This document shows, piece after piece, positions 44,148-45,833 of a DNA stretch of 64,000 nucleotides (positions are counted from its first letter, which is position 1; every line of letters starts with the position of its first letter). A model generated the notes under the pieces. It was given only the letters and a program-made list of their open reading frames with translations, was not told the origin of the DNA and ran no database searches. This DNA is from Candidatus Latescibacterota bacterium. GTDB taxonomy: Bacteria; Latescibacterota; UBA2968; GCA-2709665. The stretch is from NCBI GenBank assembly GCA_965116875.1, contig OZ220733.1, positions 4,448,001 through 4,512,000 of the forward strand, read 5' to 3'. A program made the translations under genes and the position numbers.

Positions 44148-44732
44148 CTATTTTGAGGTCTGGTAGTAGGGGTTCGTACCGTCCGCGTGTTCGGTCACGT
44201 CGAGGATTTCTTCAATTTCCGGCACAGCCTCCTTGATGAGCACTTCAACCCCCTGCTTGAGCGTGACATCCACCATTCCACAACCCTGACATCCACCGCC
44301 GAACTGGACGTATGCCTTGTTGTCCTTTACGTCGACCAGTGAGATTTGGCCGCCGTGCATGGCCACGCTGGGGTTGATCTTTTCGTCGATGATGTTCTGG
44401 ATCTTTTCGGCGGCCGTGCCCTTCAGATGCGACGGCACCTTGTTGGGATTCTCGATTTTGAAACCTCTGCCCATCAGGCTGTCCACGAAGTCCAGCGTAA
44501 TGTCCTCGGCGTAGGGAGCGCTTTCCGGATCTACGTAGATATTGAACCCGTCGAACGGCGTGACGACGTCATCGTCCTCCTCCTGTCCGCGGGCAACGAA
44601 TGCCAGACGGTAATTGGCCTGCAGCGGCGATACCGCCTCGGCCTTGACTCGAACGCCAACAATGTCAGACTCCTGGCTACCGATCAGGTTGACGACTTCC
44701 CTCTGCGCGGCTTCGGTAACGGTGATATTCAT
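44148..44732 (-). CDS. nfuA: NfuA-type Fe-S carrier
   Basis: Cys-less A-type N-domain (GFKIENPN) plus Nfu domain HGG...GGCQGC, HADGTNPYY. Confidence 0.9.
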   Translation of the reverse strand: MNITVTEAAQREVVNLIGSQESDIVGVRVKAEAVSPLQANYRLAFVARGQEEDDDVVTPFDGFNIYVDPESAPYAEDITLDFVDSLMGRGFKIENPNKVPSHLKGTAAEKIQNIIDEKINPSVAMHGGQISLVDVKDNKAYVQFGGGCQGCGMVDVTLKQGVEVLIKEAVPEIEEILDVTEHADGTNPYYQTSK

Positions 44733-44772
44733 ATCGACCTTCCCCCTGGAAAATTTGGCGGTACCCGTACGG

Positions 44773-45267
44773 TCAGGATTCAAGCGCCACGGCTGATCTT
44801 GCGGGTTGTTCCCGGTCTATCTTTTCCTGGATCTTCATCAGCGCGGACAACAGATCTTCGGGTCGGGGCGGACAGCCGGGCACGTAGACGTCGACCGGCA
44901 GGAACTGGTCCACACCCTGTACCAGCGTATAGGTATTGAAGACGCCTCCCGAGGACGCGCACGCGCCCATGGAAATCACCCACTTCGGATCCGGCATCTG
45001 GTCGTAGATCTTTTTCAACACCGGCATCATTTTGATGGATATCCTGCCGGATACGATGAGCAGGTCGGACTGACGGGGCGAGAACCGCACGGCTTCGGCG
45101 CCGAACCGGGCCATGTCGAAGCGTCCGGAGAGCGTGGCCATCATTTCGATGGCGCAGCAGGCCGTGCCGAACGGCATTGGCCAGAGAGAAGACTTGCGCG
45201 CCCAGTTGATCATCCTGGAAAGATTGGTCGTAATCACGTTGTCGCCAAGGCCCGTCTCAAGTCCCAT
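44773..45267 (-). CDS. nuoB: NADH-quinone oxidoreductase subunit B paralog (outside the nuo operon)
   Basis: [39 protein letters not shown]. Confidence 0.93.
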
Positions 45268-45353
45268 TGAATACCTCTGAAGGAATGTTTGGTGTCGTCA
45301 CATGGATTGCGACGGCGGGGGTGGCCCTGCGGCGCATCCTGTTGGGCGGGCAG

Positions 45354-45833
45354 CTAACCGGATACCTGAATCAACTCTTCGGTTACGTTCTGCAGACATA
45401 CGTCCATGGCCTGTTCTTCACCCAGCAGATCCTCGAGTGTGACGCGGCTGAGGAGCTGATCGATCACAGACTGCACCGAGCTCCACAGCGACCGGATGGA
45501 ACAGTCGACGGAGTGCGTGCACAGCCCATCTCGGCCGGCATGGTCGTCGCAGAATTCAGGATTGAACATCCGCCCGCCCAGGGCGGCCAGCACGTCTCCC
45601 ACGACGATCATATCGGCCGATTGCGCAAGCCGGTATCCTCCGGACTGACCACGCGAACTAGCGACAAAACCTCTCAGCCGAAGAAGACGCATCAGCTTTG
45701 CGACATTCGGGACCGAAAGGCCTTCAAGCTGACTGATTTCAGAGATGGAAAGGCCGCCGCCGGTTTCTCTTTGCCGTCTGCCGATCTGGATCAGGCATCT
45801 AAGCCCGTATTCTTCACCTGCGCTCAATTTCAT
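45354..45833 (-). CDS. Rrf2-family Fe-S transcriptional regulator
   Basis: EYGLRCL, SSRGQSGGYRL, three C-terminal Cys (FC..LCTHSVDC). Confidence 0.92.
   Translation of the reverse strand: MKLSAGEEYGLRCLIQIGRRQRETGGGLSISEISQLEGLSVPNVAKLMRLLRLRGFVASSRGQSGGYRLAQSADMIVVGDVLAALGGRMFNPEFCDDHAGRDGLCTHSVDCSIRSLWSSVQSVIDQLLSRVTLEDLLGEEQAMDVCLQNVTEELIQVSG

Follow-up and report, generated by a model that had tools for sequence, protein, structure and literature searches.

The suf gene cluster of a Latescibacterota bacterium contains a solitary nuoB gene

The window analyzed here, a 64-kb stretch of contig OZ220733.1 from a Candidatus Latescibacterota bacterium, carries on its minus strand the genes of the SUF system for iron-sulfur (Fe-S) cluster assembly, among which lies a gene for the B subunit of complex I. 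This gene, termed nuoB2 (44773-45267), encodes a 164-residue protein of the Nqo6/PSST type, and has 44 kb of the window on one side and 19 kb on the other. The open reading frames (ORFs) and the sequence give the order sufB-sufC-sufD-sufS-sufU-sufT-rrf2-nuoB2-nfuA, followed by a strong terminator. All genes of the run were named by Pfam and NCBIfam profiles, which confirms the gene order of the original prediction, with a stand-alone and intact nuoB inside the suf run.

The minus-strand run begins with sufB (50435-51901; NF008773, 911.9 bits against a cut-off of 717), the product of which is 96% identical to its counterpart at L001, a locus in a related genome described below. It is followed by sufC (49535-50308; TIGR01978, 362.8 bits, cut-off 212.8), sufD (48179-49504; TIGR01981, 277.9 bits, cut-off 222), the cysteine desulfurase gene sufS (46902-48182; TIGR01979, 604.2 bits, cut-off 475.1) and the gene of the sulfur-transfer protein sufU (46450-46902; TIGR01994, 162 bits, cut-off 92.5), all five being above the equivalog or subfamily cut-offs. 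The next gene is sufT-like (45923-46426) and encodes a DUF59/FeS_assembly_P domain (PF01883, 59.7 bits, cut-off 23.5) with an N-terminal extension of ~69 residues; its product scores slightly below the equivalog cut-off of TIGR02945 (133.4 against 143.4 bits). The Rrf2-family regulator gene rrf2 (45354-45833; PF02082, 94 bits, cut-off 30; TIGR00738, 90.7 bits, cut-off 73.3) precedes nuoB2, whereas the gene of an NfuA-like Fe-S carrier (44148-44732; PF01521 over residues 2-98 and PF01106 over residues 112-177) follows it. The run is closed by an intrinsic terminator (44089-44130), which consists of a compound hairpin and a U7 stretch.

The successive intergenic gaps from sufB to nfuA are 126, 30, -4, -1, 23, 89, 86 and 40 nt. 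An AGAGG box sits 6 nt upstream of the ATG codon of nuoB2 and is kept at L001, in agreement with the ribosome-binding site that had been assigned to this gene, whereas rrf2 has no visible Shine-Dalgarno box. The true start of nfuA is the ATG at 44732; a 211-residue ORF starting at 44783 is a mechanical TTG extension and was discarded. The GC content at third codon positions of nuoB2 is 0.77, compared to 0.69-0.77 for its neighbors, and this resemblance makes the measure uninformative on horizontal transfer. Rfam and tRNA scans of the 64-kb window gave no matches.

A second nuoB gene, nuoB1 (52800-53285, plus strand), belongs to a nuo operon (52240-63118, plus strand) that is transcribed divergently from the suf run. 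Pfam scans identified the subunits A, B1, C, D, H, I, J, K, L, M and N, that is, an operon of the 11-subunit type, and queries with NuoE, NuoF and NuoG found no match anywhere in the window. A 207-residue minus-strand ORF at 52135-52758 is an antisense shadow of nuoA.

NuoB2 has the sequence of a canonical complex I subunit

NuoB2 scores above the cut-offs of all three NuoB profiles, with 100.5 bits for PF01058 (cut-off 27), 239.7 for NF005012 (116) and 231.3 for TIGR01957 (142.7). Its best solved match is Nqo6 of Thermus thermophilus, which aligns over the full length with an E-value of 2.8e-62, and the match with NuoB of Mycobacterium smegmatis begins at residue 1. The protein has exactly four cysteines, Cys37, Cys38, Cys103 and Cys132, which align with the cysteines of the CC, GAC and GCPP motifs of Nqo6, the ligands of the N2 cluster. 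These four are invariant across 27 aligned NuoBs, and all of them had been correctly recognized in the original prediction.

Of 63 alignment columns in which at least 90% of 81 other NuoBs agree, NuoB2 keeps 62, and NuoB1 keeps 52. The sole departure of NuoB2, M70L, is common to three of its five clade relatives, all three of which are operonic. In the alignment with these relatives, the pair of NuoB2 proteins from the window and L001 has 5 private residues over 148 columns, compared to 9-18 for each of the five relatives. The ratio of non-synonymous to synonymous substitution rates (dN/dS) between nuoB2 and its L001 ortholog is 0.034 at a synonymous divergence (dS) of 0.80, a constraint similar to that of sufB (0.030). 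The nuoB2 gene is flanked by rrf2 and nfuA and is not placed between nuoA and nuoC; however, this position is a usual but not a defining feature of NuoB, because 39 of the 83 NuoB rows from our survey have no nuoD downstream. Its sequence shows NuoB2 to belong to the 14-subunit-type lineage, of which it is an unmodified representative, and it is very probably a bona fide complex I subunit rather than a repurposed protein.

The two NuoB proteins of the window share 54% identity. Relative to NuoB2, two residues are inserted in the GG..Y loop of NuoB1 (GGPYWQHGY, compared to GGVFNTY), where Nqo6 reads GGMFNNY. From these motifs NuoB1 is the more divergent protein, and those of NuoB2 are the canonical ones. 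The earlier view that NuoB2 represents a clearly different subtype is therefore right in that the two proteins belong to separate lineages and their motif differences are real, but it had the roles reversed, NuoB2 being canonical (62 of 63 columns) and NuoB1 divergent (52 of 63). NuoB1 is itself under strong constraint, with a dN/dS of 0.011 and 99% identity to the L001 copy. A recent in-genome duplication of NuoB1 as the source of nuoB2 is ruled out by the 54% identity, the separate clades and the approximately unbiased (AU) test, in which a tree joining the two proteins was rejected (p-AU 1.8e-5, for a group named after the tree had been seen).

The closest relatives of NuoB2 are encoded in ordinary 14-subunit operons

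A genome scan with NuoB2 as the query returned 80 loci (numbered with the prefix L). One of them, L001, shares the sufBCDSUT-rrf2-nuoB2-nfuA arrangement. It lies on the complete Candidatus Latescibacterota chromosome OZ241917.1, for which the scan returned this NuoB2-like locus and no other copy. The L001 NuoB2 is 95% identical to that of the window, and the gene order there is sufBCDSUT-rrf2-nuoB2-nfuA followed by a radical SAM gene, with the divergent nuoA-nuoB1 adjoining; the two genomes have diverged to a dS of ~0.8. The next closest NuoBs come from Gemmatimonadota (L002, 82% identity), Poribacteria (L005, 79%), Planctomycetota (L003 and L007, 77% and 71%) and L006, and their genes all lie in nuoA-B-C-D-E-F-G-H-I... 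operons. In the neighbor check for these close relatives, 53 of the 56 candidate ORFs were scanned.

Phylogenetic analysis grouped the NuoB2 proteins of the window and L001 as a pair (support 100/97), and placed this pair in a clade with L002, L003, L004, L005 and L007 (98/96) in a careful tree of 44 rows picked from 85. The same clade received a Shimodaira-Hasegawa-like approximate likelihood ratio (SH-aLRT) support of 93 in a quick tree of all 85 rows. The stem that leads to the pair measures 0.17-0.19 and is not longer than the branches of its neighbors. The NuoD proteins of L002 and L005 are 62% identical to each other. The L002 operon is otherwise an ordinary 14-subunit one, in which nuoB and nuoC are separated by a phosphoribosyltransferase-domain gene (8471-9112).

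The survey of neighborhoods and the phylogeny, both of which had been suggested as a check for a suf-linked NuoB clade, gave no such clade beyond two genomes. Homologs of the Fe-S assembly proteins of the window were found within the examined flanks of 5 of the 80 loci: L001 has the full set beside NuoB2, L075 has weak SufS-, SufU- and Nfu-like matches 6-8 kb from nuoB, L049 and L054 have SufU-like matches, and L052 has an ABC ATPase match. None of the other 79 loci has nuoB inside an Fe-S assembly operon. The arrangement thus comes close to being unique to this genome, which the original prediction had named as part of a refuting outcome; one other genome, that of L001, shares it. About six further Rrf2 types with 81-92% identity are present in public data, several of them on megabase contigs, and therefore a wider lineage exists.

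Of the 4366 longer proteins that contain NuoB, domain analysis of the best 120 revealed no fusion of NuoB with NifU, Fe-S_biosyn or Rrf2 domains. The partners found among these 120 are NuoA, NuoC, NuoD, PF04060 (six proteins), PF02636 (one) and PF09701 (one). PF04060 occurs together with PF01058 in the proteins P0073, P0082, P0087, P0093, P0106 and P0116, and many Blastocatellia proteins of the same set are NuoB-C-D triple fusions of ~771 residues.

Dislocated nuoB genes are common in this branch

The 83 NuoB rows of the survey comprise 37 operonic ones (with nuoD at most 2.5 kb downstream), 39 without nuoD and 7 too near a contig end. The 39 rows without nuoD include 30 from Acidobacteriota and also L001. 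Dislocated nuoB genes are thus common in this branch of NuoB. Their neighbors were assigned by a Pfam scan of 52 of the 69 candidate ORFs from 44 loci without a nuoD match. At L004, the NuoB of which belongs to the same clade as NuoB2 (74% identity), the order is a KH-domain gene, nuoB, an M17 peptidase gene and ccmF. L015 and L019 have nuoA and nuoB only, whereas L038 and L060 pair nuoB with a ferredoxin-like gene. Most solitary nuoB genes of Acidobacteriota have unrelated neighbors. Ammonium transporter, P-II and sortilin-like genes are among the functionally unrelated genes that adjoin solitary nuoB genes.

At two acidobacterial loci (L021, 3382-5083; L075, 9091-10772), a Methyltransf_28 (PF02636) gene stands directly after the solitary nuoB, and in the protein P0109 the NuoB and PF02636 domains are fused. 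We take PF02636 to include the complex I assembly factor NDUFAF7; if this holds, the two loci would be another case of nuoB adjoining a maturation factor.

The suf genes, rrf2, nuoB2 and nfuA may form one transcription unit

The hairpin 3′ of nfuA has a folding energy of -32.9 kcal/mol (z = -5.3), which none of 200 shuffled sequences equaled, and its stem is kept at L001. It is the sole strong terminator of the run. The sufT-rrf2 and rrf2-nuoB2 gaps showed no structure beyond that of shuffled sequences (z ~ -0.3), and no sigma-70-like site was found in the gaps after sufT by a consensus scan, which covers the sigma-70 type only. Upstream of sufB, by contrast, the minus strand carries a promoter-like TTGACA-17-TATGTT. 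This site belongs to a conserved block in the sufB-nuoA divergent gap (51986-52044), where 58 of 59 bases match L001; the non-coding DNA on either side has diverged, and the internal gaps of the suf-nfuA run are poorly conserved. The block also contains the direct repeat GTCAAGNTTAA, present twice, and is a candidate operator; an 18-nt core of it has no second copy in the window when up to three mismatches are allowed.

A single transcript of rrf2, nuoB2 and nfuA with sufBCDSUT, extending from the putative sufB promoter to the nfuA terminator, fits these features: a common strand for all genes, short gaps devoid of structure in which the scan detected no promoter-like site, and a terminator only after nfuA. 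The co-transcription of nuoB2 with suf that had been proposed is thus plausible from the sequence.

The sufB and nuo operons diverge from one 338-bp gap. The pattern CTTGACA-N8-CGGATT occurs twice in the 64 kb, once before each operon and in mirrored orientation (51996-52016 and 52111-52131), but it was derived post hoc from these same two sites, so that the count shows only the lack of a third one. At L001 the sufB-side copy is conserved, whereas the nuoA-side CGGATT is kept in only four of six positions. The shared motif of the divergent promoters may mean that SUF and complex I are regulated together.

The regulator and the carrier resemble IscR and NfuA but score below their equivalog cut-offs

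The best solved relatives of the window Rrf2 are the Rrf2 regulator 4cic and IscR (4hf2). Its scores fall below the cut-offs of IscR (TIGR02010, 61.8 against 207.55 bits) and of the suf_reg_Xantho family (TIGR02944, 72.7 against 110.65 bits). Three cysteines of its C-terminal half, Cys95, Cys105 and Cys111, form a candidate cluster site and are spaced as C-X9-C-X5-C, which differs from the C-X5-C-X5-C spacing of IscR. The protein is a probable Fe-S-sensing repressor.

The carrier comprises a degenerate, Cys-free A-type N-terminal domain and an Nfu C-terminal domain, and its only cysteines are the CxxC pair of the latter. It is 91% identical to the L001 copy. It scores below the NfuA equivalog cut-offs (TIGR03341, 162.7 against 269.35 bits; NF008392, 135.8 against 268 bits), and is hence called NfuA-like.

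The SUF system itself is of the sufBCDSU type, which is described in the available text of PMC11559095 as the only, housekeeping Fe-S system in most bacteria. Membership of the suf operon therefore does not imply stress induction, and the stress-induced character that had been ascribed to NuoB2 is not upheld.

Other features of the window

Downstream of the terminator, the minus strand carries a radical SAM gene (42649-44076) of the “CUAEP/CCAEP-tail radical SAM (seleno)protein” family (594 bits, cut-off 500). The ORF stops at a TGA codon within ...EPWYC-TGA-AEPTEEQFALV-stop, and both this TGA and an identical 11-residue tail are kept in L001; the TGA is probably a selenocysteine codon. A small hairpin after the TGA was no better than shuffled sequences. 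A low-GC patch at 38688-39955 (0.536, compared to ~0.60) contains a nucleotidyltransferase gene (39244-39561) and a HEPN gene (39548-39955), a pair typical of MNT/HEPN toxin-antitoxin modules, together with a weak HicB-like ORF below the cut-off. In addition, a gene for a membrane protein of the DUF6785/DUF6784 type and, after it, one for an ABC ATPase are located at 19345-22143.

A model for NuoB2 and its alternatives

We propose that nuoB2 is dislocated from the other nuo genes and, in a single narrow lineage of Latescibacterota, has come to lie at the 3′ end of the sufBCDSUT operon. The nine genes would be expressed as one transcript from the conserved promoter region upstream of sufB, so that the synthesis of NuoB2 would follow the Fe-S cluster supply, and Rrf2, through Cys95, Cys105 and Cys111, would tune the operon to the Fe-S demand. 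The N2 [4Fe-4S] cluster would be delivered to NuoB2 by the neighboring NfuA-like carrier, a reasonable inference by analogy because NfuA aids the maturation of NuoG and AcnB in E. coli (PMC6084964) and its A-type domain targets apo-proteins (PMC8593673), as stated in the available texts. Holo-NuoB2 would then assemble with NuoD, NuoC, NuoI and NuoH into complex I. These partners would most likely be encoded by another nuo set, of the NADH type, which would lie elsewhere in the chromosome and have no nuoB of its own. This is suggested by the lineage of NuoB2, by its lack of lineage-specific change, by how often nuoB genes are dislocated and by the rarity of hybrid enzymes. The explanation as a whole, including the second set, is the best we can offer, and we hold it tentatively, with somewhat less than an even chance of being right in every part.

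Several observations weigh against this explanation. Operons with a regulator gene in their middle are unusual. Neither a fusion (best 120 of the 4366 proteins) nor a second lineage (80 loci) links NuoB to Nfu, Rrf2 or SUF. No nuoC, nuoD, nuoE, nuoF or nuoG of the 14-subunit type is present in the 64-kb window, and nuoB2 is only seven genes (~7 kb) away from the divergently transcribed 11-subunit operon. A random gene would lie that near ~0.3% of the time, by a post hoc arithmetic of ~15 kb in ~5.9 Mb that takes the chromosome size from the L001 record. This closeness favors a link with the neighboring enzyme. In such a case no second nuo set would exist, and NuoB2 would be an alternative B subunit for the enzyme encoded at 52240-63118, either in competition with NuoB1 or in its place. 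The resulting Q-module would be a hybrid, and its abundance would follow the Rrf2/SUF regulon. The divergence of both operons from one 338-bp gap, with nuoB2 seven genes from nuoA, the post hoc CTTGACA-N8-CGGATT pattern that stands before both and nowhere else in the window, and the lack of 14-type partner genes there are all in its favor; so is the strong purifying selection on NuoB2, because of which the protein must have a partner. However, NuoB1 is intact and the more constrained of the two (dN/dS 0.011, 99% identity to L001), and its two-residue insertion indicates that the two NuoBs are not simple equivalents. Foreign partners would also predict a burst of lineage-specific change in NuoB2, yet only 5 of 148 residues are private. 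With the same four cysteines NuoB2 would spare no iron. Subunit mixing between complex I clades is rare according to the available text of Spero et al. 2015 (PMC4453560). Moreover, the proximity of 11-type and 14-type genes can be a historical relic, because the planctomycete locus L003 has both side by side. Overall, we consider a use of NuoB2 in the neighboring enzyme, beside or instead of NuoB1, rather unlikely. Decidedly unlikely, in our view, is its fuller form, in which NuoB2 is a client of the suf operon that is made together with the Fe-S supply, loaded by the NfuA-like carrier and inserted into the 11-subunit complex as an alternative Q-module subunit, with SUF and complex I brought under one Rrf2 switch by their similar divergent promoters; if true, the Fe-S status would determine the composition of a hybrid complex I.

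It is also conceivable, but quite unlikely, that rrf2, nuoB2 and nfuA form a transcription unit of their own, which starts from the 89-nt sufT-rrf2 gap, is autoregulated by Rrf2 and merely lies behind suf; in its weakest form, the position of nuoB2 would have no regulatory meaning at all. Regulator genes usually lead operons, the two largest gaps in the 3′ part of the run (89 and 86 nt) flank rrf2, and rrf2 has no visible Shine-Dalgarno box. The unrelated contexts of solitary nuoB genes elsewhere further suggest that the location may be accidental. By contrast, neither gap contains a sigma-70-like site (this promoter type being the one covered), both are poorly conserved relative to L001, unlike the block upstream of sufB, and no terminator-like fold follows sufT. 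The arrangement has in addition survived a divergence of dS ~0.8. Finally, NuoB2 might act outside complex I, as a soluble Fe-S carrier, store or sensor together with Rrf2 and NfuA, as the original prediction had also considered. Only its place next to both a regulator gene and a carrier gene speaks for such a role, which we regard as highly improbable: the protein aligns with complex I subunits over its full length, it keeps 62 of the 63 conserved NuoB positions, and thus much more than the cluster ligands, and it has the fewest private residues in the clade (5 of 148) at a dN/dS of 0.034. The interfaces with NuoD, NuoH and NuoI should have relaxed in a protein freed from the complex.

Returning to the proposed dislocated 14-type subunit, its placement is unusual and the protein is ordinary. 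A client, a carrier and a regulator in one operon would have a plausible functional logic. Should expression of nuoB2 from the suf operon prove true, nature would here have placed the gene of an Fe-S client under the regulon of the assembly machinery, beside a dedicated carrier gene; this would offer a simple system for studying the delivery of N2 to complex I and the choice of NuoB by NfuA-type carriers. If there is no second nuo set, two complex I lineages would have exchanged a subunit here, which is rare. The general importance is limited because, among the genomes examined, only two related ones have the arrangement.

Comparison with known systems

NuoB2 matches the solved NuoB, Nqo6 and PSST structures (2fug chain 6 of T. 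thermophilus, 8e9g chain B of M. smegmatis and 7awt chain B of E. coli) over its full length, with E-values of 2.8e-62 to 1.6e-59, and shares with them the four N2 cysteines and the GCPPRPE motif. It differs from the usual NuoB in that its gene lies inside a suf operon while a second, more divergent nuoB is present in a nearby nuo operon.

The separation of nuoB2 from the nuo operon fits the known pattern of dispersed nuo genes, seen here in 39 of 83 rows including L004. In the available text of Spero et al. 2015 (PMC4453560), nuo genes are colocalized in 86% of the genomes with complex I and are not in 14%. The other solitary nuoB genes, however, lie in unrelated contexts or beside nuoA, nuoI-like or Methyltransf_28 genes. 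The closest parallel to two nuoB types at one site is L003 (649-16412), from a metagenome-assembled genome of Planctomycetia, in which an 11-type operon with a NuoB1-like subunit and a 14-type operon with a NuoB2-like subunit stand back to back, ~2.5 kb apart and divergent. The nuoD-nuoI interval of its 11-type operon is too small for nuoEFG. Each set of L003 is complete with its own nuoB, whereas the window shows only the nuoB of the second type.

Neither a nuoB in a suf operon nor a client gene in one operon with its carrier gene was found described in the literature listings searched, which agrees with the earlier statement that no such operon was known. Similar to E. coli NfuA, the window carrier is a two-domain protein that combines a Cys-free A-type domain with an Nfu domain bearing the CxxC motif. 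E. coli NfuA matures NuoG and is under an Fe-S-sensing Rrf2 regulator, according to the available texts of PMC6084964 and PMC8593673. The window carrier and regulator differ from this pair in scoring below the NfuA and IscR equivalog cut-offs. Furthermore, the client named in E. coli is NuoG and not NuoB, whereas here the proposed client gene, nuoB, is in the same operon as the carrier.

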